Shown one piece after another: positions 6,531 through 59,006 of a DNA stretch of 64,000 nt. The DNA is taken from the NCBI GenBank assembly GCA_012401045.1, contig GCA_012401045.1_4704.2; one strand, written 5' to 3'. Numbering within the stretch: position 1 is the first letter of the stretch; every line of letters starts with the position of its first letter. A program made the position numbers and the translations under genes. The notes under the pieces were generated by a model. The model did not search any database, was not told the origin of the DNA, and was given only the letters and a program-made list of their open reading frames with translations. This DNA is from a phage.

Positions 6531-6590
6531 AAAAAAAAAAAAAGATTGTACGGTTCCCTCCTCCAACCCGTAAGGGAAGGAGGAAGGTTT
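6531..6590. terminator. bidirectional intrinsic terminator (A13 run plus CCCTCCTCC...GGAGGAAGG hairpin) between convergent genes
   Basis: Hairpin flanked by a 13-nt A run on plus strand (T run for minus-strand transcripts). Confidence 0.7.
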
Positions 6591-6603
6591 ATGACCGCTT
6601 TGA

Positions 6604-7407: not shown

Positions 7408-7977
7408 TTAGACGATGAGTGACCAGGTGGTAAGCACCCCACTTGCGAATTCGAGCTTAAGACGTTTACCGATAAGTTGTTGCTGGATCATCTTCTCGGT
7501 GATACGTCGATCATGCTGAACCGCTTTATCAAACGCTTCTTTCGCTTCAGCTTGGTAGAAGTTCGTTTCTTCGTTTTCGTCGATCTCTTCGAGAGCATCG
7601 TCGTCGATGTCAGCAAGTTTCACTCGACCGTTTTCATCAGGTTGTTCTGCAGGTTCATTGTCATACGGCGTGTCTTTTGTTGGTGCGACACGATGTTGCA
7701 ACTCGACCTGCGTTAACATGATCTCCATCTCACCATCGATAGGAATGATTTCATCGGCGCTGCCGTTTTCGGTCAGCTCGCGACTTTCCAGTAATGTCGT
7801 CGTAACAGAGAACACCTCTTCAACAGGAACCTCATCATCGTCGATGGTGTTAACCGTGTTGCTGGTAACTTCAGCAACAACCATCAAATCAAATGCGTGA
7901 GGGTCACCTGGCATTTTGATTCCTGGAAGTTTGTTGAGGTACCAAGGATCAAGAATCATGATTTCTGGATTAAACAT
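7408..7977 (-). CDS. hypothetical acidic protein (189 aa)
   Basis: ATG start with AAAGG RBS; D/E-rich central region. Confidence 0.65.
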   Translation of the reverse strand: MFNPEIMILDPWYLNKLPGIKMPGDPHAFDLMVVAEVTSNTVNTIDDDEVPVEEVFSVTTTLLESRELTENGSADEIIPIDGEMEIMLTQVELQHRVAPTKDTPYDNEPAEQPDENGRVKLADIDDDALEEIDENEETNFYQAEAKEAFDKAVQHDRRITEKMIQQQLIGKRLKLEFASGVLTTWSLIV

Positions 7978-8053
7978 CGTATTTTACCTTTCTATGTTAG
8001 GTGGATTTCGGATAGAAGAATCAATGCATAAACTAATTTAAGTTTGTTAAGGT

Positions 8054-8956
8054 TTACTTAGCCTTTGAGTTATACGGACTAACATGTTGTTGTACTCGTT
8101 GGATTGTATCGTAGTACGGGTTAAGTTGATTGAACATGTTGTTGTGTGGGTGATAGCCATATGGCGCATTTTGCCTTGTTGGTGAGAAACCTTGTTGAGA
8201 AGGACGGTTTGAATTAACCGCGAGTACGTAGTAAACCAAATTTTGGCGGTCGAACGTTCCTTCGTTTTTGAAGGTGTCGGCGTAGGCGCTTACCGCTGGA
8301 GCGAGCCTATCACCATCGGTTGTAATGATTGTGCCATCGGGATAAACTTCCCGAACGACGCACCATGTTCCGATGAGAACATCTTTGGGTGATGTATTAC
8401 CGTATCCGGTTGTAACGGTAAGGTAAGTATCGAACCCTTCAGAACAACAAGGATGACGATAGATGGGTCCTGTCATTTCCAGTCTATCGGTGTCACCGCA
8501 TTTCTCTATTGAGAGCGATGATGTGTCGGTTTTGAAATTGTCAAATTCTTTCTTTAAGTCGATTACGGGTTCTTTCGTATAGTACTTCTTGATTGCTTTG
8601 ACGTAAAGATCGGGAACGGTTGTCAGCAATCCGTTATACCTGATTCTCAGGTTTTCGAGTAATCCAAAGATGCTCGCGCATGCCTGTTCGCGAGGTTTTG
8701 TAAGATAAGAGATCCCCCCAGGAACGCTGGGATCTTTGAGAAAGAAGATTGCGTTATTGTCGTTGTGCGATGCGTTGAAGAAAACGATTGATTCGATATA
8801 TACGGAGCATAGGCTGTCGTTGGCGTCGTCAGATAACACCCAGATGCACTCATCGGTCGTCTTGTTTAAAAGTTCTGTTTTGTCGACCAAACGTTGTTTC
8901 ATTGCGAGGAAATGTGCCTGTTGTTCAGCGGATAATTCACGATAAATGGTGGTCAT
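8054..8956 (-). CDS. hypothetical protein (300 aa), paralog of 9042..9824
   Basis: AAGGAG RBS; shares [YF]D[RT]YLT[IV]T-G and RE[IV]YPDG-I[VI]T blocks with the adjacent gene. Confidence 0.7.
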   Translation of the reverse strand: MTTIYRELSAEQQAHFLAMKQRLVDKTELLNKTTDECIWVLSDDANDSLCSVYIESIVFFNASHNDNNAIFFLKDPSVPGGISYLTKPREQACASIFGLLENLRIRYNGLLTTVPDLYVKAIKKYYTKEPVIDLKKEFDNFKTDTSSLSIEKCGDTDRLEMTGPIYRHPCCSEGFDTYLTVTTGYGNTSPKDVLIGTWCVVREVYPDGTIITTDGDRLAPAVSAYADTFKNEGTFDRQNLVYYVLAVNSNRPSQQGFSPTRQNAPYGYHPHNNMFNQLNPYYDTIQRVQQHVSPYNSKAK

Positions 8957-9041
8957 GTTGAGCTCCTTGATTACGATAAGGATGATTGCGGTTTTGTGGT
9001 GTTGGTAGGGCCCTAAACAAATGAACCCTACTAATATTAGG

Positions 9042-9824
9042 TTAATCGGGATCGGCGTAGAAATGGTGAGGATAGCCGGAGTACGATCCCGCGTTACCGG
9101 TTATGGATTCTTTCTGGGAATCGACGACGAGTGCATAGAACTGTCGGGAATTTGTTAGCGTTGAGAAATAAGAGGAAAGGACTTTTTCATTCAACGCATC
9201 GCAAGGTAGACAGGTGCGACCGCAAAACGTCACGATACGGCCGTCAGGATAGATCTCACGAATCATTCTCCACTCGCCAATATCGACTGGTGATGGCGCT
9301 GCTACACCACCTGTTATCGTTAAGTAACGATCGTACGTGGTATGGCATTCAGGATGAACGTAAATCGGTTGGGCATCAATACTATCGTTTTCTGTTTGAT
9401 CTTTATTCACGTATACCTCAAGGTAGATTGTTGGTAACCCGGTTAGAACGCCAGTGTCACGACGTTTTTTGGTAATCCGGGGACGGATATTATCGAGCAC
9501 GCCTTCCAGTTTTTCTGCGACTTCGTCAGCCGGTAATATATACCCGTATGTTGGTTCTGGGTCATCACCGTGGCTAAATAAGATACGACAGTCGTTTTTA
9601 TTAAATTCTATATCTTCAGGTGGGAAGATGATGACGCGAACCGTATGGCGTTCTGCGATATAAAATCCTTCAGGCCCCTCAGTTTTGGTAAGTGTAAAGG
9701 ACCAGGATGAATGATCTTCAAGTGACGTGCCTGCCAGGAAAAAGTCCGCCCGAATTGGTGCGTTCCATTTCGCGATCATATTGGCGTGACCAATAACGCC
9801 TAATTTTTGATAAATATCTGTCAT
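9042..9824 (-). CDS. hypothetical protein (260 aa), paralog of 8054..8956
   Basis: ATG with GAGG RBS; conserved promoter-like motif lies upstream; paralogy as above. Confidence 0.7.
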   Translation of the reverse strand: MTDIYQKLGVIGHANMIAKWNAPIRADFFLAGTSLEDHSSWSFTLTKTEGPEGFYIAERHTVRVIIFPPEDIEFNKNDCRILFSHGDDPEPTYGYILPADEVAEKLEGVLDNIRPRITKKRRDTGVLTGLPTIYLEVYVNKDQTENDSIDAQPIYVHPECHTTYDRYLTITGGVAAPSPVDIGEWRMIREIYPDGRIVTFCGRTCLPCDALNEKVLSSYFSTLTNSRQFYALVVDSQKESITGNAGSYSGYPHHFYADPD

Positions 9825-9858: not shown

Positions 9859-9910
9859 GATAACAGTAACCGCTGTTATCACCTAGGTAATGTAGTCGCG
9901 AAATAAACTG
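9859..9910 (-). promoter_or_regulatory. conserved ~30-nt promoter-like motif (ATCACCTAGGTAATGTAGTCGCGAAATAAACTG) with adjacent palindrome GATAACAG-N6-CTGTTATC
   Basis: Near-identical copy at ~47084-47135 and partial copy at ~1696-1715, each upstream of a minus-strand gene start and downstream of a family hairpin. Confidence 0.4.
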
Positions 9911-9930
9911 GAGTAATGCGAAATAAGACA

Positions 9931-9975
9931 GCATAAGCCCTCTCCCAACCCGTAAGGGAAGGGAGAGGGAATATT
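9931..9975 (-). terminator. hairpin of the GCATA-CCCTCTCCC...GGGAGAGGG family
   Basis: Abuts stop of 9974..11341. Confidence 0.55.
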
Positions 9976-15235: not shown

Positions 15236-15271
15236 GCATAAAGCCCACCCCGAAGGGCGGGCTGTTTATGC
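15236..15271 (-). terminator. hairpin variant (GCATAA-AGCCCACCC cgaa GGGCGGGCT-GTTTATGC)
   Basis: Immediately downstream of 15279..18656 stop. Confidence 0.5.
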
Positions 15272-21161: not shown

Positions 21162-21209
21162 GCCATAAACCTTCCTCCAACCCAACAGGGAAGGAGGAAG
21201 GGATATGGT
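21162..21209 (-). terminator. hairpin of the CCTTCCTCC...GGAGGAAGG family
   Basis: Downstream of 21212..22501; two further short palindromes at ~21089-21110 and ~21117-21138 in the same spacer. Confidence 0.55.
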
Positions 21210-23867: not shown

Positions 23868-23913
23868 GCATAGAACCCTCTCCCAACCCGTCAGGGAAGG
23901 GAGAGGGGATATG
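23868..23913 (-). terminator. hairpin of the CCCTCTCCC...GGGAGAGGG family
   Basis: Downstream of the highly expressed gene 23930..25252. Confidence 0.55.
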
Positions 23914-32144: not shown

Positions 32145-32189
32145 GCATAACCCTCCTCCAACCCAACAGGGAAGGAGGAGGGAATATGC
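32145..32189. terminator. bidirectional hairpin terminator (CCCTCCTCC...GGAGGAGGG) between convergent genes
   Basis: Located between stop of 29136..32129 (+) and stop of 32192..34984 (-). Confidence 0.6.
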
Positions 32190-39840: not shown

Positions 39841-41592
39841 ATGAGCGAACAAGAACGAAAACCTAAGAAGAAACTGCTCGGTATTCAATGTCGACACATC
39901 AGCTATAACGAAGCGAACGATGGCAGCAAGAACGACCTCATGATCGCAAAAGAGATCATGTTCTTTGATGACAATACGCAAGCGACGAACCTTCGCTTCT
40001 TTGAGAATTACAAACGTCCGTTTTGGGTGACGGTAGAGAGTAAACGTAAGAACAAATATAAAAAGGAAAGCGAGAAGCTCTCGCATGTGCGTCGCTACGA
40101 TGTCCGCCAAAGCGAACTGGTTGAAAAGATCAGCTCGGTACTTTATAAAAGACGTGCTGACGATAACACCCGTTTACAGCAGCTTGCACGGAGTCCATAC
40201 CTCTATGGAACGGACGTTAGCGCCAGCTGTTATTTAAAAACCCAGTACAACACAAAATGGCCGGAATACGTCGATAAATTACCCGCTTCCATTGCCTGTT
40301 TCGATATCGAAACCGACGTTGTCCACGGACACGGTAAGATCGTTTGTATGTCTATTACAATGGGATACAATGCGATACTTTGCTATACCAAGGACTTCGT
40401 TGGTCATATTCCGAATGCCATTGAGAAAACCCATGAGAAGATTCGATATTACCTGGCCGAACGTCTGAATACCAAAGAAGATCCCCACGCATTCGAAAAA
40501 TATCAGTACGATGTTCGAATCGTAGAAAGCCCGGCACAAGCGGTCATCCAATGCATGCAGAAGGTTCACGAATGGCAGCCGGATTATCTCCTTGGCTGGA
40601 ATATCGCGTTCGATATTCCGCGCATGCTCCAGGCACTGAACGAGGAAGGGTATCGTCCCGAGGATGTTTTCTCCGATCCCCGTATACCACCTAAATATCG
40701 TATTGCTCGCTGGGTACCACCGAAGACCGACAAGGTATCTGCTTCAGGTCGTAAAACCAACCTTACCCTTGAGCAAACCTGGCCGATGTTTTATACGATG
40801 GCTACGTATCAGGTTATGGATGCGATGTGTGGCTATAAGTTCGTTCGTTTAGGAAGACCGGATGAAGGACGCTATTCACTCGATGCGGTGTTAGAGCGAA
40901 ATAAATGCCATACGAAATTAAAAGCTATTCCTGGTACAGAGGGGTTCACGGAGCTTGCCTGGCACGAAGAGATGCAAACGAACCATCAAATCGACTACGG
41001 CGTATATAACCTTTGGGATAACCAGGGTATTGAGGCGTTGGACCAGAAAACAAAAGACTATTCGATGACCATCCCTATCCGTTTAGCGGCGTCGGATTTG
41101 AAAGATTTCAGTTCTAACCCTAAACGTATCTGCGATAAACTTTTCTTCGTTTATCTTAACCGTGGGGAAGTCATGGGATGTACCGCTGACGACATGACCC
41201 AGGAAGAAGATAAGTGGGTTATCTCACGAGCTGGACATATCGTCACATTACCATGCGATCTCATGGCTGACAACGGCATTCATCTCTTCTGGGATATGCC
41301 GAACCTGAGAAGTTATATCCGTCTATTCGTTGCAGACCTTGACATTAGCAGTTCATACCCGAATGGGCAGATCCTGTTGAATCTATCCAGAGCGTGTGTT
41401 TTTCGCGAGCTCTCACGCATTGAGGGCGTCTCTGACTATCAATTCAGGAAGTTAGGTATCAACTTTATTACCGGAGGTAAAACGAACGCTGTAGACTTCT
41501 GTAGAATCGTTTATAAAGCACCATCGATGTTTGAACTTTTAGAACATTTCGATGCAACGCGTCCAAAAGAGGAAGCGCGGACCATCGAATGA
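39841..41592 (+). CDS. family-B DNA polymerase N-terminal fragment: 3'-5' exonuclease domain plus polymerase motif A
   Basis: Exo I FDIETD, Exo II WNIAFD, Exo III YNLWD, then DISSSYP matching motif A (DxxSLYPS); ORF ends ~80 aa later with no motif B or C. Confidence 0.6.
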   Translation: MSEQERKPKKKLLGIQCRHISYNEANDGSKNDLMIAKEIMFFDDNTQATNLRFFENYKRPFWVTVESKRKNKYKKESEKLSHVRRYDVRQSELVEKISSVLYKRRADDNTRLQQLARSPYLYGTDVSASCYLKTQYNTKWPEYVDKLPASIACFDIETDVVHGHGKIVCMSITMGYNAILCYTKDFVGHIPNAIEKTHEKIRYYLAERLNTKEDPHAFEKYQYDVRIVESPAQAVIQCMQKVHEWQPDYLLGWNIAFDIPRMLQALNEEGYRPEDVFSDPRIPPKYRIARWVPPKTDKVSASGRKTNLTLEQTWPMFYTMATYQVMDAMCGYKFVRLGRPDEGRYSLDAVLERNKCHTKLKAIPGTEGFTELAWHEEMQTNHQIDYGVYNLWDNQGIEALDQKTKDYSMTIPIRLAASDLKDFSSNPKRICDKLFFVYLNRGEVMGCTADDMTQEEDKWVISRAGHIVTLPCDLMADNGIHLFWDMPNLRSYIRLFVADLDISSSYPNGQILLNLSRACVFRELSRIEGVSDYQFRKLGINFITGGKTNAVDFCRIVYKAPSMFELLEHFDATRPKEEARTIE

Positions 41593-41635
41593 TTCAAGTA
41601 GGTTGATCCTCGCTTAACAAAAAAGAAAACACATG

Positions 41636-41685
41636 CGAAGCCCCTCCCCCTGGCGGAAGCCGGAGGGAGGGGTGAGGTTTATGCG
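41636..41685. terminator. bidirectional hairpin (CCCCTCCC...GGGAGGGG) between convergent genes
   Basis: Between stop of DNA polymerase fragment gene (+) and stop of 41679..42164 (-). Confidence 0.55.
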
Positions 41686-42164
41686 CGTTCGTTACCAACC
41701 GTTACTTTGTAGTCAGCGTCGGTTAAGAAAATAGACAGGAATCCATGTTCTTTGCAAATCTTACTAAGGATGTCAGCAATGATTTCGTTGATCATCGGCT
41801 TGTTTGCAAGGGCATAGATGTACCCGGGTGTAAAAGAAAGTGCGTGATTGATCATAGGCTCATGAGAAGCCAAGATAAGGATCACGTGATGCTTCCCATC
41901 GTCGGTAACGACCGCTTGCGTAGACACGAAGAAATCAGTGAAGCAGCAGCGATCACAGGCTTTAGGTATATACAAGTCACCCAGAGCTTCGTCACGTGCT
42001 TTTACGTGTGTTTCAGGGGTGATGCTGCTAAGTTGATCTTCAGCGAGATCCAAGACATCCTCAATCGTTTTAAGAATAGCGTTGCGGAAATCCTCACGGT
42101 AGAATGGGATGATATCACGATCGTTCATGTAATCGCCGGATTCGATAGTAAAGTTGATGTTCAT
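41679..42164 (-). CDS. hypothetical protein (161 aa)
   Basis: AGGAG RBS 6 nt before ATG; convergent with DNA polymerase gene across a hairpin terminator. Confidence 0.65.
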   Translation of the reverse strand: MNINFTIESGDYMNDRDIIPFYREDFRNAILKTIEDVLDLAEDQLSSITPETHVKARDEALGDLYIPKACDRCCFTDFFVSTQAVVTDDGKHHVILILASHEPMINHALSFTPGYIYALANKPMINEIIADILSKICKEHGFLSIFLTDADYKVTVGNERA

Positions 42165-42234
42165 TGAATGCTCCTAGTGGTTATGTCGATTGATCGATGT
42201 ATTGATTTATGTTTGAAGGTGTTGTTCACCTTCG

Positions 42235-42699
42235 TTAGATATCGTCATCCGTGGTGCCGTAGGACATATGCTGAATTAATTTTCTCGGCTCGATGAAAAT
42301 ACGACATGTGATAAACACATCGGGATCGTATTGCTCCACGCAACGTCCGAAGGTTTGTTTTGCGGCTTGGCGCATCGATGTTATTTCCTGATCGTTCATC
42401 GCATTATCGAATTCGATGTTGATCGTGATTTTATCGGGAAATAAATAGATAAAGTAATCGCCGCTGATACCACCATCATCAAAGTGACGTTCATTGTAGC
42501 ACTGGACGAGCTTACCTTCACGTTCTTTCTGATACCATCCAAGGATACTATTAAGACCTCTGTCCACGCATTCGAATGCTTGAGTAATAACATCCTCAAC
42601 GACGGATGCAGGCGTGGGACCATTGAATAGACGATCTAAGCGCTTTTTCATCGATTTGGTTTTCTCGTTCATGATTTCTTTTCCTGTTATAATCGGCAT
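42235..42699 (-). CDS. hypothetical small protein (154 aa; alternative start at 42672)
   Basis: First ATG lies inside a hairpin element; internal ATG (codon 10) has AGGA RBS. C-terminal QYDPD resembles the EYDPD paralog family. Confidence 0.6.
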   Translation of the reverse strand: MPIITGKEIMNEKTKSMKKRLDRLFNGPTPASVVEDVITQAFECVDRGLNSILGWYQKEREGKLVQCYNERHFDDGGISGDYFIYLFPDKITINIEFDNAMNDQEITSMRQAAKQTFGRCVEQYDPDVFITCRIFIEPRKLIQHMSYGTTDDDI

Positions 42700-42740
42700 A
42701 CAACCCTTCCCCGGCCTGATGGCTAGGGAAGGGGCTATGC
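42696..42740 (-). terminator. hairpin variant (GCATA-CCCTTCCCC...GGGAAGGGG-CTATGC)
   Basis: Downstream of 42748..43146. Confidence 0.5.
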
Positions 42741-42747
42741 TACGTTG

Positions 42748-43146
42748 TTATGCTTCGCAATCAGCTGAAGGCGTCGCGCCTTTCTTACCAGCGATACACC
42801 AAATCCGACACGCTGGGTAATGGTTAACCTCTAGAGAGCAAGGAATGTTATATTTCTCTTCCAGCGCATAAAGACATTTCGTTAGCTGCTCCAGCGCGTT
42901 CTCGTCGTGTCGTAACGCGTGGTGGCCTAATCGATGTTGGTCGTTCTTTATATACGCCTCGAAGAGAACATGTTGGCGATGTACGCTGACGTTTACAGCC
43001 TCGAGTATAGCTTGGTCGAGCATACGACTAAAGCACATCAACGAGTCAGATACGTTTTCTCGCTTAACCAGATCAATCATGGCGGGAATATACGAATGGT
43101 CGATGTTATCGATGACCGCTTTAGCGACGGAATCAGCAACGTTCAT
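42748..43146 (-). CDS. small protein (~132 aa), paralog of 43183..43578
   Basis: Track ORF starts at GTG (43176); first ATG (codon 11) aligns with the paralog N-terminus; shared EEKYNIP[CF]SLEVN block. Confidence 0.65.
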   Translation of the reverse strand: MNVADSVAKAVIDNIDHSYIPAMIDLVKRENVSDSLMCFSRMLDQAILEAVNVSVHRQHVLFEAYIKNDQHRLGHHALRHDENALEQLTKCLYALEEKYNIPCSLEVNHYPACRIWCIAGKKGATPSADCEA

Positions 43147-43182
43147 CTTTTTAATCCCTAGTTTGTTATTGATCACGTATAT

Positions 43183-43578
43183 TTACTCTTTGACGTCAGT
43201 TGTCGTTTCGACATGCTTCTCACTACTGACGTACCAGAGCAGGTACGCTGGGAAAAGATTGACCTCTAAGCTAAATGGAATATTGTATTTCTCTTCCATT
43301 TTACAGAGATGTTCTTTAAGTAAATTTCTCGCGTCTCTGTCACCACGAACAGAGTGCCAGTCTAGTTCTTTGTTCTCCTTTACCAGGACCTCTACGATGA
43401 TACGTTGCTCGTGAACCTCGGTTTTCACAGTGAAAAGTAAATCGCTGCTATCAAAACGGGTAAAACGAATGTATGAACCAGGTGTTTTTTCTTGTTTAAT
43501 AATATCGATCATGGTAGAAATGCGCGGATGATCGATGTTGTCGTTAACAGCTTTAACGATGGATTCTACAATGCTCAT
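43183..43578 (-). CDS. small protein (131 aa), paralog of 42748..43146
   Basis: AAGGA RBS; paralogy as above. Confidence 0.65.
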   Translation of the reverse strand: MSIVESIVKAVNDNIDHPRISTMIDIIKQEKTPGSYIRFTRFDSSDLLFTVKTEVHEQRIIVEVLVKENKELDWHSVRGDRDARNLLKEHLCKMEEKYNIPFSLEVNLFPAYLLWYVSSEKHVETTTDVKE

Positions 43579-43610
43579 TTTTTATCCTTAATGTTATCGA
43601 TTTGGAAATA

Positions 43611-44378
43611 TTACTTATTTTTGCTTTCTTTATAGACAGTTGTTACCCACGATGGGAAAGCCGGATGGAAACAGAGCGTGAACGTAACTGTCGTATCGTA
43701 TTTAAACGCACAGTTCACTAACCGGGTATCTAACGTTTTCCTTAATCCGTCATCATCGTTATCGATGATGGTCATATCTCTTAATATCCCAAGCACGTTA
43801 ACGCCATCGGGTGTCTGGGTTACGACAAGTCGTCGTAATGGCCCGCATGTATAGTCACGTACAAATCCTTTCTTCGGGTCCGATACCCTGTTTAACGCAT
43901 CGTGATTTTTGATGAATTCATCGGCGATACAATAGGTTTGTTCCCTTGCTTTATCGGGATCGTATTCTGCTAATAGTTCCTTCGTGTCGAACGTTATCAT
44001 GTTATTATCATTCGATTCAGAAGGGAAGCATAAAACTAAACGAACAGGGTACTCGTATTGATCTGTTCTCGTTTCGAAAGCATTAGCTAAACACGGCTTG
44101 TATGCCTTTGCGTCGACATTGTCCAAACATGGATGCAATAATGCATGAATAACGGCACCATCGTCAGTTAAACCGAATTCCAGAAATTGTACCCTATCAG
44201 TATCCGCTACGGTTTTCTGAAGGTACGCTTTACCGTTAACAATATCGGTATCCCACATATCGTCGTTTAACGATTCTTCAAACTTATCGAATATATGGTT
44301 TACGAGATTGACGAGTTCATCAATACGGCACTGTTGGTTGAATTCGATTAATCGTTGAACTTTATCTTTGATAGACAT
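43611..44378 (-). CDS. hypothetical protein (255 aa) related to the EYDPD small-protein family
   Basis: Contains LAEYDPD block shared with 44381..44839, 44839..45300 and 45372..45866. Confidence 0.65.
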   Translation of the reverse strand: MSIKDKVQRLIEFNQQCRIDELVNLVNHIFDKFEESLNDDMWDTDIVNGKAYLQKTVADTDRVQFLEFGLTDDGAVIHALLHPCLDNVDAKAYKPCLANAFETRTDQYEYPVRLVLCFPSESNDNNMITFDTKELLAEYDPDKAREQTYCIADEFIKNHDALNRVSDPKKGFVRDYTCGPLRRLVVTQTPDGVNVLGILRDMTIIDNDDDGLRKTLDTRLVNCAFKYDTTVTFTLCFHPAFPSWVTTVYKESKNK

Positions 44379-44380
44379 GA

Positions 44381-44839
44381 TTACCCATTAGCTCCTTCTT
44401 CGTCTGGAGAGTATTCCATCGTGTAGAATTCATAACCATCGGAAAACTTGAGTGTTAATGTAATAGGGAAATCGCACGGCATAGCTGATTTCGTAAATGC
44501 GTTATTAGCAACATCAGCCAACCGACGTATAGCATCAGTCCCGCTGACGCTGAACGGTAGTTGTATGTTGATAAGGATGCGGTGCTTGTAAACATGGAAA
44601 ACAACGGTACTGTCAAGATAAACGCTATGGAACGGTATTGTTGGGATGCGTTCCACAATGGAAAAATACGTCCCGTCATTATCGCTATGCCCCATCGACC
44701 AAATATCGGATTTGCGTAGATTTTGTTTGAGGGATTCGATACTTCGAGTGACGGTCTCATCAACAGGCGTGACGTAAGTGTCTTTATGCGAGTCGAAAAG
44801 TTCGTTGACGTTAGATTCGAATGAATACATTGTTGCCAT
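44381..44839 (-). CDS. small paralogous protein (152 aa), EYDPD family
   Basis: QLPFSVSG and EYSPDEE blocks shared with the downstream paralog; 1-nt overlap coupling. Confidence 0.65.
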   Translation of the reverse strand: MATMYSFESNVNELFDSHKDTYVTPVDETVTRSIESLKQNLRKSDIWSMGHSDNDGTYFSIVERIPTIPFHSVYLDSTVVFHVYKHRILINIQLPFSVSGTDAIRRLADVANNAFTKSAMPCDFPITLTLKFSDGYEFYTMEYSPDEEGANG

Positions 44840-45300
44840 TATTCTACCTCTTTCTTCATCTTCATCGGAACAGAGAGTGCTGTTATCTCTGTTCCATTAT
44901 CCGGTTCATACTCCAATGTAACGAGATTGCAGCCATCCGATAATTCATAATCGATCGCTAGGGGGAACGAGATACCGTGCGACTTTATGCATTTACCAAA
45001 TGTCTCGTTGGCTGTATACATTAGAAGTTGCTTTGCGGCAAGCCCGTTTACGCTGAAAGGTAATTGTGCTGTCGCAGCGATACGATTATTGTAAACTCTG
45101 ATATCGGTGATATCTACAATCGTAGCATTGCCGTGTTGTGTTGTTGGAACGGATAGGTTGTAGAAGTAAGGTTCGGAGTCGGAATCGGGCTCGTTAAATA
45201 ATTCCCAGCACCCGTCCTCCTGCAATCTTACTTCGAGTATTTCAAAGCTTTTAATTATCGATTCTACCAGCTGCTCACCGTAAGAATCCCATGTCGTCAT
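44839..45300 (-). CDS. small paralogous protein (153 aa), EYDPD family
   Basis: QLPFSVNG and EYEPDNG blocks. Confidence 0.65.
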   Translation of the reverse strand: MTTWDSYGEQLVESIIKSFEILEVRLQEDGCWELFNEPDSDSEPYFYNLSVPTTQHGNATIVDITDIRVYNNRIAATAQLPFSVNGLAAKQLLMYTANETFGKCIKSHGISFPLAIDYELSDGCNLVTLEYEPDNGTEITALSVPMKMKKEVE

Positions 45301-45371
45301 TTTTTAACACCTTCGACACCTTTTAACCGATACGTGTCCCATCTAACAAGGGACACGATATCGTTGATTAA

Positions 45372-45866
45372 TTACTCTTCTGTGTTTTCATTGTCAGGAT
45401 CGTAGTGGAATTCGAACAGCCCTGAACCGTCGTGTCCGTTGATTGTTAGTATAACGGGCATATCGAATCCTCGGACACGCGAATGAAAACATTGTGCTAA
45501 TTTTAGTTTGGCGTATGCCGCTACTTCATTGACAGCAATACACGATTCACCTGTTATACTCAGTATAACGTCGATACTAACAACGTTGTCGTGCAACGCA
45601 AAACGCCAGCGATCGATACGATTATTATCTTTATCGGTTGTCTCGTTTACGAGATAGACTTTATCGTCAACCGACAAAGCGGGACTCCAGCAACGATCGT
45701 TTATTAAATTCGCCTGGAGTTTTAGTATCGTCTGATCGATAATATCCCAACACGTAACCAGCGTGGTGTCAGGCACTGAGTAGAGAAGGGCGTGCACTTT
45801 ATCCTTTATTTTAAGTGCTTCCGCAGGACGTCCGCAAATACCATGCATTTCAACTTTCTTATTCAT
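45372..45866 (-). CDS. small paralogous protein (~164 aa), EYDPD family
   Basis: Track ORF starts at GTG (45872); ATG is codon 3; C-terminal FEFHYDPDNEN block. Confidence 0.6.
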   Translation of the reverse strand: MNKKVEMHGICGRPAEALKIKDKVHALLYSVPDTTLVTCWDIIDQTILKLQANLINDRCWSPALSVDDKVYLVNETTDKDNNRIDRWRFALHDNVVSIDVILSITGESCIAVNEVAAYAKLKLAQCFHSRVRGFDMPVILTINGHDGSGLFEFHYDPDNENTEE

Positions 45867-45909
45867 ATTCACTTCTTTCTTAATCTAAATGTTAGTTGGG
45901 GTGGGATGT

Positions 45910-46512
45910 TTACATGCTTTCTAGCATATTGACGATCATGGAACCCATACCGAAACTCGGTCTTTCACCGATGTACTCAGCAAGCTGGCGATGGACGTCT
46001 TTTGGATTTCCTTCTTCACCATCGGCATCGATGTAAACCGAAAAAGAAACCGAATCGGAATCCACGCTGATAACCAGACGACGTTCATTGCGTTCCTTGA
46101 GCGTGTCGACGATAGATGCTTTCAGTACCGGGATCGCATTCATCGCGTGCAAGATATCTCCATCGGGTTTCGGCAGATCGATCTTTTCTTTCAGGTCGAT
46201 ATTGATGTTGGTTACAATTGGATTGAGGTCGACCTTGACATAATCGTTAGGATACATGCGAATAATCGCACGATCGATATCTGAGCCGTAAAAGTCAACA
46301 CGCGGCTTTAACACTTCTTTGTTTGGATCCATGTTTTCATCCATCCCAGCCTGCAAGAAACGTTCTACGTTATCCAGTTCACGATAAACTGACGCTTCGA
46401 TTTCTTTCAGATAGTTGGCTGCGGTTTCATGTTCTTTACGCAGCTCGTCTTTAAGGAGCTGTACGGTGGTTTCACTGGAACGGATGCTGTTCGCGAATTG
46501 TGTAATTGACAT
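45910..46512 (-). CDS. hypothetical protein (~200 aa)
   Basis: Track ORF starts at TTG (46542); first ATG (codon 11) has AAGGA RBS 7 nt upstream. Confidence 0.65.
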   Translation of the reverse strand: MSITQFANSIRSSETTVQLLKDELRKEHETAANYLKEIEASVYRELDNVERFLQAGMDENMDPNKEVLKPRVDFYGSDIDRAIIRMYPNDYVKVDLNPIVTNINIDLKEKIDLPKPDGDILHAMNAIPVLKASIVDTLKERNERRLVISVDSDSVSFSVYIDADGEEGNPKDVHRQLAEYIGERPSFGMGSMIVNMLESM

Positions 46513-46610
46513 ATCGAATTCCTTAAATTCTCTTGAGTTCAATTAATGATGAAAAGCTGTAAAAAAAGGTGGGGCGAACCCCACCAAAACGTCAGACACA
46601 CGCAGGAAAA

Positions 46611-47036
46611 TTAATTCAGTGATGCATATAAGGCATAACGACTGTAGATCTCAACCGCCGGTCCGTTATGTGTTAACAGACCATCCTGGTTGTAATACTG
46701 GAAAAATGAATAACGTTTGTCGAAGTGATAAACAAAAGCGATGTCTTTGCCGTCAAAACCTGTGATGCGTGGTCTGTTTTTATCTAGCAATGCTTTGACT
46801 TTTAACAGTGTTGCCGCACGTGCTTTAACGTTAGGGATCAAGCCATCACAATCGATATAAACGGTGTAACCTGTTTCAGATGTTGCGACGGTTGTATTGC
46901 GATTGACGCGGAAGATTTTTGTTTCGTATGTACTATCTTCAAGAATTGGGTTTTGTTTTTCGTATTTTCGTTTACGTAGAAATTCTACAACGGTGATATA
47001 GTTAGCGGTAATATGCCCGGTTATTGCTTGTAACAT
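46611..47036 (-). CDS. hypothetical protein (141 aa)
   Basis: AAGGA RBS; conserved promoter-like motif ~70-100 nt upstream. Confidence 0.65.
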   Translation of the reverse strand: MLQAITGHITANYITVVEFLRKRKYEKQNPILEDSTYETKIFRVNRNTTVATSETGYTVYIDCDGLIPNVKARAATLLKVKALLDKNRPRITGFDGKDIAFVYHFDKRYSFFQYYNQDGLLTHNGPAVEIYSRYALYASLN

Positions 47037-47083
47037 CTCGACATCCTTTTATATTGGATTGATTGCAATTGTCTTAAATAGAT

Positions 47084-47135
47084 GATAAGATATTTTGCTC
47101 TTATCACTAAGGTAATGTAGTCGCGAAATAAACTG
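47084..47135 (-). promoter_or_regulatory. second copy of conserved promoter-like motif with adjacent palindrome GATAAGA-N8-TCTTATC
   Basis: ATCACTAAGGTAATGTAGTCGCGAAATAAACTG; ~70-100 nt upstream of ATG of 46611..47036. Confidence 0.4.
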
Positions 47136-47156
47136 CGTTAACACGAAATAAAAACA

Positions 47157-47212
47157 GCATAGAACCCTCCTCCCCCATCCTTCAAGAGGACGGTGGGAAG
47201 AGGGAGAGATTA
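47157..47212 (-). terminator. hairpin of the CCCTCCTCCC...GGGAAGAGGG family
   Basis: Overlaps stop of 47210..47611; followed on minus strand by the conserved promoter-like motif. Confidence 0.5.
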
Positions 47213-47611
47213 AATGTCGTGGACGGCAATGCCGTTTAACCAGCAATACAGCTTAACGCGACACGGATACCGCTTCGTTGCGGCAACCATTTCATCGCGT
47301 AAACGCTGGTAGATTTCATCCTGGTGTTCACGTTCAATGGGGTAATCAGCCCAACATTCGATCATGACATCACCATTCGTCAGAATCGTCGTACGCATCC
47401 TGTCCTGGATACGGCGGTCTTTCCCGGCATTAGGGAAATACATTCCTTCAGTACGAATAAGGTCGCCGCAGGGCATGACTAACCATTCGTTCGTTTTGCC
47501 GGTATTCTTATAATCCATTACGGCTTGCATTGCGGTGTCAACGCTAAAAGAAACATAATTCCAAACGGATGTCCAACGATAGATTGCGGGTTGTTCGAGT
47601 GTTTCGTTCAT
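47210..47611 (-). CDS. hypothetical protein (133 aa)
   Basis: ATG-initiated ORF followed by hairpin element at stop. Confidence 0.6.
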   Translation of the reverse strand: MNETLEQPAIYRWTSVWNYVSFSVDTAMQAVMDYKNTGKTNEWLVMPCGDLIRTEGMYFPNAGKDRRIQDRMRTTILTNGDVMIECWADYPIEREHQDEIYQRLRDEMVAATKRYPCRVKLYCWLNGIAVHDI

Positions 47612-47657
47612 GGAGTGCTTGTCCTATTTTTATTTTCTGCACAGGATAAATTCAACG

Positions 47658-47707
47658 GCATAAAGCCCTTCCCTGCCCTTATATGGGGCGGGAAGAGTTT
47701 ATGACCG
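47658..47707 (-). terminator. hairpin variant (GCATAA-AGCCCTTCCC...GGGCGGGAAG-TTTATG)
   Basis: In the ~210-nt spacer downstream of 47825..48451. Confidence 0.45.
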
Positions 47708-47824
47708 CAATGAGAATCTCTCACGACAAGCTCACGACGATTATCGCATCACCCCGCGAGTGAGGGAGATCAGGATCACCTCCTACGTCGTAACGACAGC
47801 AATCCCGTTACGTCGCTTTAGACG

Positions 47825-48451
47825 TTATGCGAAGCGACGCATGTAACCCGCCAGATAGTTACGCGTATCGAAGTAAGCAATTTCAGGAATTGCGATATTA
47901 AGGTCGATAGCGCGGATTTCAACTTGGCGACGGCTTTCATCATAGATCGCATCCATCAGACGCAGTACTGTCAGGAAAGCCATGCGGGTATGGTAGTCCA
48001 GCGGCATGTTATCGATACCGCGATACAGATAACGGTTTGCATTAAATGCCCCTTCGCTGTTATCTTTCCAGATCTTCAGAATATCAGCAAAGGCGGTGCG
48101 GAAAACTTCAGGATTATCCACATCCAGTAACGCACGGAAAGCAGACATTAAAGACCGCTGATGACGGATCAACGACTGCGGCGTTTGCGGCATGGTCGGA
48201 CCCATTTCTTCCGCATATTTCTGGAACGGAGCAACCAGGGTTGCGGCACGAGAAGCCACGATAGAAACAGCAGGCGATTCTTTCACCGCCGGTTTCGCAG
48301 GCTTTTCTTCAACAACGGTTTCCTTCTTCTCAACAGCGACCGTTTCCGGCTGTGCTACAACATCACTAACCGGAGCATCTGCAACGGTGGTTTCTACCGC
48401 AGTAATCTCCTCGTCCATTTTTGCAGAACGTTGGTCTTTATTCTTGCTCAT
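47825..48451 (-). CDS. hypothetical protein (208 aa) downstream of RNA polymerase fragment gene
   Basis: AAGGA RBS; Ala/Val/Glu-rich N-terminal region. Confidence 0.65.
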   Translation of the reverse strand: MSKNKDQRSAKMDEEITAVETTVADAPVSDVVAQPETVAVEKKETVVEEKPAKPAVKESPAVSIVASRAATLVAPFQKYAEEMGPTMPQTPQSLIRHQRSLMSAFRALLDVDNPEVFRTAFADILKIWKDNSEGAFNANRYLYRGIDNMPLDYHTRMAFLTVLRLMDAIYDESRRQVEIRAIDLNIAIPEIAYFDTRNYLAGYMRRFA

Positions 48452-48476: not shown

Positions 48477-49778
48477 TTAACTAATATAAAGTTCAGGATC
48501 GTAAGGCGCTAACGATACACTGGCGTTATGCATTGCTTTCATCATAGTGTTCATGAAAACGTTGTTTACACCGGTGATCTCTGCCCCGATCGCGTCTGGG
48601 GTTGGAGCCATCGCGTTACCGCAACAGGTAGCACAGTATTCCAATGGGCCTGCTTTACAACGTTGAGGATCGCGTAACTTGATGGTTTGTCCTTCCAAGG
48701 AAGCAAGTAATTCAGCATCAATAAGTTTAAGCGCCGCACCGTCGATCATGTAACGGCCGACAAGCAGCTTATCTTTGATATGATCGCGGTTTACCGTGAA
48801 CAGAATATGTTCGTGGGTACCGCAGTCGTCCATCGTGATTTTAAGGTTCTGTGTCGCACGTTGTGATTCTTTCGCCGTCTGTCCCGCTAAAGCGGTCAGT
48901 GCGCCACGTGAGAACGAACCTGCACGTGCACTGTTGTTGTACTCCGCCCAATGGTCGACACGCATCCCTTCAGCCAGGCTGTGTGTGATAACGTTACGTT
49001 TACCAGGGTCAACGAAGTCGGCTTCAACCCCCATCATGATGTGTGTTTTCTTTCGAGTATTACCGAAACTCTTGCCTGGGTTAATATAGAACCCTTCCGA
49101 TTCGTCGCCCTTAAAGGATTCTTTATCCATTTTGGTTAGCGTGGCTTCGAGTTTGATCAGTTCTTCAGGCGTGAACTTACCTTCCTCTTGTAAGCGTGCT
49201 AACTCTTTATCGCGATAGGCAATAATATCATCATCGACCGTTAACGCTTTATCACTCATTGATGGAACAATTAAACGGTTGATAGCGGTTAATGCGCTGA
49301 TATTGTTGGTGAATTTCTTCACTTCGCTTGCGTACAACGGACCAATTGGACGTTCGTTAGGATCGGGTATTCCCTCTTCAGGATCGTCCGCTACGCGTGG
49401 CGCAATCAGTGACTCCAGTGTACCGCTGGTCAACCGTCCTGCCTGGTATTCAATCTGAATACCGAAAGCATCATAAAGGACGTACATATTGAACAACGCT
49501 TCACCGAAGGTTGTGGTGGTTGTATTCTTAACCGACGGTAGATCACCAGGTGCAAGCTCCAATGACTCCCAGAAACTCAACAAGGGTTTTGTTGGCTCGG
49601 TTTCCCATTGGTGTTCTTCACCGTCGATGGTAACCGTAACGACGTTACCTTGACGACGTAATTTAGGCTGATACTTCTCAGCGCCGCCTTCCGTAAAAGC
49701 AAATGCGTCGTTAATCCATTCAAGATAACGGTAGTGCCCTTCACGCATCGCGTAAAGGAAATATTCACGAGGTGTCAT
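48477..49778 (-). CDS. multisubunit RNA polymerase beta-prime-like fragment (bridge helix region; 433 aa)
   Basis: AAGGAG RBS. EGMRVDHWAEYNNSARAGSFSRGALTALAGQTA resembles the beta-prime bridge helix ([27 protein letters not shown]); TMDDCGTHEH matches the DDCGTHEG segment that follows it in bacterial RpoC. No NADFDGD, so it is a fragment. Confidence 0.55.
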   Translation of the reverse strand: MTPREYFLYAMREGHYRYLEWINDAFAFTEGGAEKYQPKLRRQGNVVTVTIDGEEHQWETEPTKPLLSFWESLELAPGDLPSVKNTTTTTFGEALFNMYVLYDAFGIQIEYQAGRLTSGTLESLIAPRVADDPEEGIPDPNERPIGPLYASEVKKFTNNISALTAINRLIVPSMSDKALTVDDDIIAYRDKELARLQEEGKFTPEELIKLEATLTKMDKESFKGDESEGFYINPGKSFGNTRKKTHIMMGVEADFVDPGKRNVITHSLAEGMRVDHWAEYNNSARAGSFSRGALTALAGQTAKESQRATQNLKITMDDCGTHEHILFTVNRDHIKDKLLVGRYMIDGAALKLIDAELLASLEGQTIKLRDPQRCKAGPLEYCATCCGNAMAPTPDAIGAEITGVNNVFMNTMMKAMHNASVSLAPYDPELYIS

Positions 49779-53859: not shown

Positions 53860-53905
53860 ACATAACCCTCCTCCAACCCGTAAGGGAAGGAGGAGGGCTT
53901 ATGCT
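53860..53905. terminator. bidirectional hairpin (CCCTCCTCC aacccgtaaggg AAGGAGGAGGG) between convergent genes
   Basis: Between stop of macro-domain gene (+) and stop of 53907..54281 (-). Confidence 0.6.
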
Positions 53906-58963: not shown

Positions 58964-59006
58964 GCCATAGCAGCTCCTCCAACCCGTCAGGGAAGGAGGA
59001 GCATAC
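58964..59006 (-). terminator. hairpin (GCTCCTCC aacccgtcaggg AAGGAGGAGC) downstream of lipoprotein gene
   Basis: Loop sequence identical or near-identical to other family members. Confidence 0.55.

Follow-up and report, generated by a model that had tools for sequence, protein, structure and literature searches.

What are the small minus-strand genes that a nucleus-forming jumbo phage carries between its DNA polymerase gene and the gene for a virion RNA polymerase subunit, and what might they be for? The question is raised by a phage contig (GCA_012401045.1_4704.2 of NCBI GenBank assembly GCA_012401045.1), of which a stretch of 64,000 nucleotides, hereafter the window, was analysed. The phage is closely related to Escherichia phage Goslar (Chimalliviridae, a nucleus-forming E. 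coli jumbo phage), the sole megablast match of positions 42000-46600 (89.6% identity over 52% of the query). A sequence-only reading, made from the letters and their open reading frames (ORFs), had described an array of duplicated small genes at 42235-45866 as a hypervariable accessory region of the kind in which phages carry host-takeover or anti-defence proteins. We find a collinear array of seven genes that, with the help of predicted structures, we assign to one fold superfamily, that differs in content between close relatives, and that would by orthology be expressed early; a role in host takeover or anti-defence is plausible. The members, in gene order, are as follows.

45372..45866, minus strand: slot A (g45372), 164 amino acids; orthologue of Goslar gp73 (78.6% identity); C-terminus HYDPDNENTEE.
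44839..45300, minus strand: slot B (g44839), 153 amino acids; QLPFSVNG and EYEPD; not in Goslar, found in 7 of 15 genomes.
44381..44839, minus strand: slot C (g44381), 152 amino acids; orthologue of Goslar gp72 (85.8% identity); QLPFSVSG and EYSPD.
43611..44378, minus strand: slot D (g43611), 255 amino acids, residues 1-148 being the family domain with an EYDPD end; not in Goslar.
43183..43578, minus strand: P1 of a pair (g43183), 131 amino acids; EEKYNIPFSLEVN; not in Goslar.
42748..43146, minus strand: P2 of the pair (g42748), 132 amino acids from the ATG at 43146; EEKYNIPCSLEVN; not in Goslar.
42235..42672, minus strand: slot E (g42235), 145 amino acids from M10; orthologue of Goslar gp71 (73.6% identity).

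The landmarks of the sequence-only reading were correct, in that Goslar_00068 flanks the block on the DNA polymerase side and gp77 and gp78 on the other; in Goslar, gp77 is a capsid decorator, gp78 a virion RNA polymerase subunit and gp66 part of the vertex complex (10.64898/2026.04.21.720040). Its count of about ten minus-strand genes was too low, as 12 separate the DNA polymerase gene (39841..41592) from the gene for the virion RNA polymerase subunit (48477..49778). The six ORFs that it named (slots A to D and the pair) are all present on the minus strand where it placed them, each preceded by a Shine-Dalgarno-like sequence, and both the B/C junction (at 44839, where the slot C start and the slot B stop overlap) and the C/D junction show coupling or overlap. 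The homologues of P2 are 132-136 amino acids long. For slot E the true start is probably M10, at position 42672, a placement made from sequence because the homologues are 145-150 amino acids long.

Are these genes one family? Pairwise comparisons, in which Smith-Waterman scores were set against 300 shuffles, link slots B and C (30% identity, blastp expect value (E) 4e-17, z = 23.8) and make slot A a hub of similarity (z 9-11), with z = 11.3, 9.3 and 11.4 against C, B and the N-terminal half of D, respectively. P1 and P2 share 38.8% identity over 129 amino acids (E 1e-30, z = 44.8). Profiles were also built, one alignment per orthologous group with the block taken from 15 distinct Goslar-like genomes, and compared with hhalign, including two slots that occur outside the window, G (142-167 amino acids) and F (169 amino acids). 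Slots A, B, C, the N-terminal half of D and G score 89-98% for most pairs (A-B 34%; B-D and C-D below 15% or not scored), with the D half reaching 94.9% to A and 97.8% to G, and slot F scores 95% against the merged profile. Slot E, which the sequence-only reading had left unassigned, has a pairwise shuffle z of only 3.0; its profile scores 80% to a merged A/B/C/G profile built without it, 90% to F and 73% to G, and it aligns full-length in the family alignment, including the invariant L, W, A, F and Y positions, so that we regard it as a probable distant member. The neighbouring gp70, gp74, gp75 and gp76 are not members (hhalign <1%), nor is the protein of a further slot, 'x' (<2%).

The homology of the four genes previously grouped by shared motifs (slots A to D) therefore stands, while the motifs themselves need revision: QLPFSV[SN]G is limited to slots B and C, and the shared C-terminal block exists as [EH]Y[DES]PD, slot A having HYDPD, with most family branches ending in [EH]Y-x-P-[DE]. 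In slot D the EYDPD block lies inside the protein (residues 140-144), with a 107-amino-acid C-terminal extension behind it. This extension might be a second copy of the domain, since KYDTTVTFTL resembles QYDFPVTLTL by eye, but its hhalign scores are at most 2.3% to any group. P1 and P2 are indeed paralogues, as had been proposed; their status as a separate pair may not hold, as they have the same predicted fold as the EYDPD genes.

The pair is tied to the EYDPD family through AlphaFold models. That of slot C (m5d4cf34f9ade; predicted local distance difference test score (pLDDT) 81.2, predicted template modelling score (pTM) 0.74) has the topology H-H-E-E-E-E-H-E-E (H, helix; E, strand), and that of P1 (m69bf04da2f7f; pLDDT 84.4, pTM 0.77) the topology H-H-E-E-E-H-E-E. 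In Foldseek searches of BFVD the sole strong match of the slot C model was Goslar gp73 (template modelling (TM) score 0.74, E 5.8e-11), and the sole significant match of the P1 model was this same protein (E 1.3e-6, TM 0.56 (TMq)). Sequence profiles reach just 16-26% between the two groups; a Y-[DN]-x-P-x-[ST]-L motif is common to both at the equivalent site after the long helix. We conclude that all seven genes of 42235-45866 belong to one predicted fold superfamily, the membership of the pair resting on the models. The domain would be a soluble alpha/beta unit of 130-170 amino acids, with two N-terminal helices, a beta meander of three to four strands, a long helix and a beta hairpin; the family proteins are mildly acidic and have no hydrophobic segments (isoelectric point 4.4-6.4, grand average of hydropathy <0).

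Nothing in the conserved positions of this domain points to catalysis. The absence of a recognisable catalytic motif had been remarked upon before, and the invariant columns of both family alignments are indeed L, W, A, F and Y, hydrophobic or aromatic only. For none of the ten block proteins did Pfam, PHROGs or NCBIfam return more than sub-threshold noise, and sequence-profile searches of the PDB with both family alignments gave no match; no known anti-defence family was matched in Pfam, PHROGs, NCBIfam or PDB sequences, no dedicated anti-defence library being searched. An Rfam scan of 41000-48000 at E up to 0.1 was likewise without a match. It is conceivable that the proteins are degenerate or divergent enzymes, for example PD-(D/E)XK-like nucleases, whose alpha-beta-beta-beta-alpha-beta core resembles the predicted topology, and among the lower-ranked Foldseek hits of the two models UL24, YqaJ and PD-(D/E)XK proteins are over-represented. 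However, neither model has a significant structural match to a member of that superfamily, and the D...(D/E)xK catalytic motif was not found in the alignments, where the pair has E63-x3-K67; we consider this explanation very improbable. The T3S4 (PscP/YscP/FliK) substrate-specificity-switch domain was considered as another possible relative.

The family also has a narrow distribution. Exhaustive searching of 1.84 billion cluster representatives with HMMER returned only 16 clusters, and word-indexed searches 139 and 29 clusters at 90% identity. Their sources are contigs of ~229-260 kb or short fragments, from metagenomes and from E. coli and Salmonella assemblies, and every contig traced from the searches is Goslar-like. 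The occurrence of family members in bacterial assemblies agrees with the reported persistence of Goslar-like phages in bacterial isolates (10.1101/2024.12.31.630880). By these searches the family appears to be restricted to the Goslar lineage, and its predicted fold to be without a known relative.

Does the array vary as an accessory region should? In all 15 genomes the genes follow a single collinear order, gp74 - [x] - A - [B] - C - [D] - [P1 or c34] - [P2] - [E] - [F] - [G] - [gp70], which comprises nine slot types and one unplaced variant (c34). Goslar has three members, the window seven and the related genomes up to nine, Goslar being without four of the window's seven genes (B, D, P1 and P2). 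Slots A and C are present in all 15 genomes; each other slot is absent somewhere, and this natural absence argues that B, D, P1, P2, E, F and G are dispensable. In one contig, L042 (Logan SRR23754872, 9267-9698), slot D is cut at residue 138, just before EYDPD, and everything from P1 to F is missing, a natural deletion variant that shows deletion in action within the array. No genome lacks the flanking genes gp74-gp78, gp66 and gp67, which are mostly 92-100% identical, with lower values in the divergent L005 and in single flank alleles. The description as a hypervariable accessory region is thus borne out, with three to nine members between conserved flanks and a copy number that is not fixed across related phages. 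The notion of repeated local duplication, read as ongoing amplification, is not. The paralogues are 20-39% identical at the protein level, each slot is orthologous between genomes, and no direct DNA repeat of more than 40 nucleotides at 73% identity links one paralogue to another. The duplications are ancient, because no repeats remain at the DNA level, and because members occupy fixed collinear slots the variation comes from deletion or loss together with allele exchange. As judged from sequence, present variation is a matter of deletion and exchange, with no ongoing amplification.

Exchange is suggested by slot identities that disagree within single genome pairs. The gp72 orthologue of the window is 98.7% identical to that of L012 and 63.8% to that of L007, while its gp71 orthologue is 77% identical to that of L012 and 94.5% to that of L007, a discordance that implies recombination between allelic lineages; alleles reassort between co-circulating phages. 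In several genome pairs the family orthologues are 64-86% identical in amino acid sequence versus 94-100% for flanking genes. Family genes have pairwise ratios of nonsynonymous to synonymous substitution rates (dN/dS) of 0.09-0.53, most of them within 0.13-0.45, whereas the values of the conserved flanking genes mostly fall within 0.01-0.15; in most comparisons gp72 (slot C) ranks among the highest in the block, with 0.32-0.45 in six of seven. The members are real genes under purifying selection, with weaker or more diversifying constraint than their neighbours, and their orthologues evolve several times faster. That the ORFs might be functionless, as decaying duplicates or chance frames, could be suspected from their lack of annotation and from nothing else; it is effectively refuted by the dN/dS values, by ORFs that are intact in dozens of genomes and have ribosome-binding sites, by the transcripts and peptides of the Goslar orthologues of A, C and E, and by the confident AlphaFold models.

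When are the genes expressed? Expression profiling of the kind proposed in the sequence-only reading exists for Goslar, as RNA-seq at 30 min of chimallin (ChmA) knock-down versus control (Supplementary Table 2 of bioRxiv 10.1101/2023.09.20.558163), where the knock-down stops infection at the early vesicle stage. Goslar gp70-gp75 hold full transcript levels with nucleus formation blocked (log2 fold change, knock-down/control, +1.0 to +1.3), while gp51-gp69 and gp76-gp93 change by -3 to -8, i.e. an 8- to 250-fold drop (10.1101/2023.09.20.558163). In Goslar gp70-gp75 accordingly form a nucleus-independent, early-class island within late structural genes, and by orthology the same may be said of the phage of the window.

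The same genes can be placed against virion content, estimated in Table S4 of bioRxiv 10.64898/2026.04.21.720040; the RefSeq gp numbers of both tables equal the GenBank locus tags, as checked by a protein mass match. Goslar virions contain 110-260 copies of gp70, 5-13 of gp74 and 2.5-5.8 of gp71, and 0.36-0.85 of gp72 and 0.27-0.63 of gp73, the last two from one peptide each and at the level of non-virion RNA polymerase subunits and a helicase (10.64898/2026.04.21.720040). These values show that gp72 and gp73 are made but are not stoichiometric virion components, and no PF12699 or other structural-protein domain was found at or above threshold in Pfam or PHROGs, so that family members are not virion structural proteins, which would have undone the earlier interpretation. 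It may be asked whether they are instead low-copy cargo that is injected with the DNA and acts before transcription, like T4 internal proteins or P1 Dar. The presence of gp70, gp74 and gp71 in purified virions and the location of the block among virion genes (gp66, gp77, gp78) speak for such a role, but the trace levels of gp72 and gp73, transcripts that are early-class and not late, and the lack of the PF12699 inner-body domain make it improbable.

The array is best described, in our view, as a collinear set of anciently duplicated early genes whose products bind host or host-defence proteins for takeover or counter-defence, a reading to which we give about an even chance. By orthology to Goslar gp70-gp75, the injected genome would already express the members before the phage nucleus forms and without depending on it. 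Each could then bind a host or host-defence protein stoichiometrically in the cytoplasm during the pre-nuclear phase, a common scaffold presenting divergent surfaces, and the slot repertoire would be shaped by the hosts that each phage lineage meets. A more specific version, tempting but tentative, is that the superfamily represents a new fold of early cytoplasmic immune antagonists or decoys found only in Goslar-like phages, with each slot countering a different enterobacterial defence or host factor; protein- and RNA-sensing defences would be the main threat, because nucleus-forming phages hide their DNA. Literature searches by name found no functional study of Goslar gp70-gp74, and no genome-wide Goslar fitness screen was found.

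Several observations weigh against a host-directed array. Slots A and C are in every genome and could have a core phage function rather than an accessory one; early expression is carried over from Goslar, where four of the seven genes have no orthologue; gp71 (slot E), at ~4 copies per virion, is borderline, and low-copy packaging of that slot is possible; and the union of the pair with the EYDPD family depends on predicted structures. Throughout the block dN/dS is below 1, so that positive selection is not demonstrated, and per-site variability of gp72 orthologues, mapped on secondary structure, is spread out with no single hot patch. In part these points would suit a family with a role in the phage's own early programme (the vesicle, the establishment of the nucleus, the sorting or import of proteins, the regulation of phage transcription or translation), with paralogues as specialised adaptors. 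Such a programme could explain the co-expression with nucleus-independent early genes and the universality of A and C, and the island is not purely host-directed, since it also encodes gp70 and gp74, abundant and present at 5-13 copies in the virion, respectively. Nucleus and vesicle functions are, however, conserved family-wide, whereas this family is absent from other chimalliviruses and from all else in the 1.84 billion representatives and BFVD, and most slots are naturally dispensable; we judge the own-programme explanation rather unlikely.

Arrays of this general kind have precedents. T4-like phages are said (by Comeau et al. in 2007) to have a 'plastic periphery' of early regions, with small early genes clustered between conserved modules. 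The array resembles T4 plastic regions in its small, homologue-less ORFs between core genes, in their presence or absence in close relatives, in early expression as expected by orthology and in a presumed takeover or anti-defence role. It differs in that most island genes are of one fold superfamily in fixed collinear slots, and in that this phage builds a nucleus and injects an RNA polymerase of its own, which transcribes the early genes; searches of Pfam, PHROGs and BFVD turned up no T4 protein related in sequence or structure. In African swine fever virus (ASFV), the MGF110, MGF360 and MGF505 genes, like poxvirus 'genomic accordion' loci, are tandem paralogues with isolate copy-number differences that have been linked to host range and immune evasion. 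The array shares with these multigene families tandem paralogues whose copy number differs between isolates; unlike genomic accordions, it has no near-identical copies and no sign of recent amplification, and varies by slot loss and allele exchange. Closer to home, the phiKZ-type inner-body families (PF12699; Goslar gp58 and gp53) are likewise lineage-specific chimallivirus paralogues, and inner-body or high-copy virion paralogues of the PF12699 type are thought to act on injection by the authors who catalogued the virion (10.64898/2026.04.21.720040). PF12699 proteins are late and present in hundreds to thousands of copies (gp58 log2 fold change about -3.8), whereas the family described here is early and found in virions in traces. 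A further parallel is JADA (Pa36 gp316), an early chimallivirus protein of novel fold that is sensed by Avs5 (PMC12931631); like JADA, the family consists of early chimallivirus proteins without a recognisable fold, and JADA illustrates how early cytoplasmic proteins form an interface with protein-sensing immunity. The array illustrates well a known kind of region, the hypervariable early accessory island, though here with a lineage-specific superfamily, and is not categorically new.

What delimits the island? Three genes outside the family and several candidate regulatory elements surround or punctuate the array.

47110..47193, minus strand: boundary cassette upstream of gp75; GC-rich polypyrimidine/polypurine hairpin, TATGCTG, then TTTATTTCGCGACTACATTACCT.
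46611..47036, minus strand: gp75 orthologue, first early-island gene; 99% identity to Goslar gp75; outside the family.
46568..46585, minus strand: canonical intrinsic terminator, GGTGGGGTTCGCCCCACC plus T-run, between gp75 and gp74.
45910..46512, minus strand: gp74 orthologue, 200 amino acids; 96% identity to Goslar gp74; outside the family (hhalign <1%).
42697..42739, no strand assigned: palindromic GC-rich hairpin between P2 and slot E, with TATG after it on both strands.
41679..42164, minus strand: gp70 orthologue, last early-island gene; 100% protein identity to Goslar gp70; outside the family.
41642..41683, no strand assigned: GC-rich hairpin where the island and the DNA polymerase gene converge; end of the island.

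The boundary cassette is kept in relatives, where the sequences of the hairpin arms vary and the TTTATTTCGCGACTACATTACCT element keeps its place. The window has only one other copy, at 9885-9969 (minus strand), with a chance expectation of 0.00. Both are ~100 nucleotides long and consist of the hairpin, TTATGCTG, then TTTATTTCGCGACTACATTACCT..GTGATAA, and they sit exactly at the window's two late-to-early transcription boundaries, that at 9885-9969 separating the orthologue of late gp48 from a second early island. In Goslar only two copies exist genome-wide; every related locus carries one, at the boundary of gp76 and gp75. From this placement, we infer that the cassette may combine a late terminator with a promoter or leader shared by the two embedded islands. 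We rejected TTTATTTCGCGACTACATTACCT as a general early promoter, given just two occurrences in the whole Goslar genome. The terminator at 46568-46585 is annotated as such in Goslar and is nearly invariant in 13 loci; the gp74 orthologue, second gene of the island, is the first one past it. A scan for sigma-70 promoters found fewer sites than in shuffles, as expected because the phage has its own RNA polymerases.

The cassette hairpins belong to a wider family of intergenic hairpins in the window, GC-rich with polypyrimidine/polypurine arms (CCCTCCTCC...GGAGGAGGG) and with TATG(C) 2-4 nucleotides later, often on both strands. The sites are listed here in two parts.

Approximately 1747-1794, 6555-6593, 9932-9969, 15237-15270, 21164-21207, 23869-23913 and 32146-32188: hairpin family sites, first part.
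Approximately 41642-41683, 42697-42739, 47158-47193, 47659-47703, 53861-53903 and 58966-59002: hairpin family sites, remainder.

TATG is the core of phiKZ late promoters (PMC4666361). We did not use it as a late-promoter mark for timing when it follows a hairpin, as it precedes early (gp75, gp71) and late (gp76) genes alike; the hairpin-TATG units may be terminators, promoters or processing sites. A different structure, a 13-bp stem-loop without a T-run, occurs at 45310-45345 (minus strand; arms on the plus strand CGATACGTGTCCC...GGGACACGTATCG) in the 71-nucleotide spacer between slots A and B, and could be an attenuator or processing site inside the operon.

Some further observations concern the neighbours. 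The gene gp70 encodes an abundant packaged virion protein, yet its transcript is in the early nucleus-independent class, and it is missing from some relatives (L007, L010). The gp74 and gp75 orthologues are weakly similar (blastp E 0.011 in a small database; Smith-Waterman z 4.6, with 2 of 300 shuffles equally high), which may reflect chance or a very old relationship. The second early-class island, at 7408-9824 (minus strand), corresponds to the Goslar gp44-gp47 region, whose log2 fold change in Goslar is +0.7 to +1.3 (10.1101/2023.09.20.558163), and is hypervariable too. It has two genes extra relative to Goslar, 9042..9824 (260 amino acids) and 8054..8956 (300 amino acids), whose products are mutual paralogues (25% identity, E 2e-19); neither matches Pfam or is related to the EYDPD superfamily, even though the first ends in FYADPD. 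On the other side of the block, the DNA polymerase gene of the window (39841-41592, plus strand) is a single uninterrupted ORF of 583 codons, as it is in L008. In Goslar (L001, 2081-5591) and most relatives a 1.76-kb insertion with a NUMOD1/HNH homing-endonuclease gene interrupts it after codon 499, the last 85 codons resuming downstream with 98.8% identity. By sequence this looks like a mobile intron or endonuclease insertion, of which the window would have the empty allele.

Nucleus-forming jumbo phages escape DNA-targeting immunity, so that the cytoplasmic proteins of the first minutes are the remaining contact between host and phage, and the block provides a compact, defined set of candidates for host manipulation. 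Should the genes prove inert, the analysis still delimits an accessory island and its boundary elements inside a late structural region. Goslar is tractable with dCas13d knock-down, and natural presence/absence variants in sequenced E. coli and Salmonella isolates mean that the slot repertoire could be correlated with host genotype. If the members are indeed immune antagonists or decoys, that repertoire would set host range or the persistent carrier-state infections that Goslar-like phages establish in E. coli and Salmonella isolates (10.1101/2024.12.31.630880).

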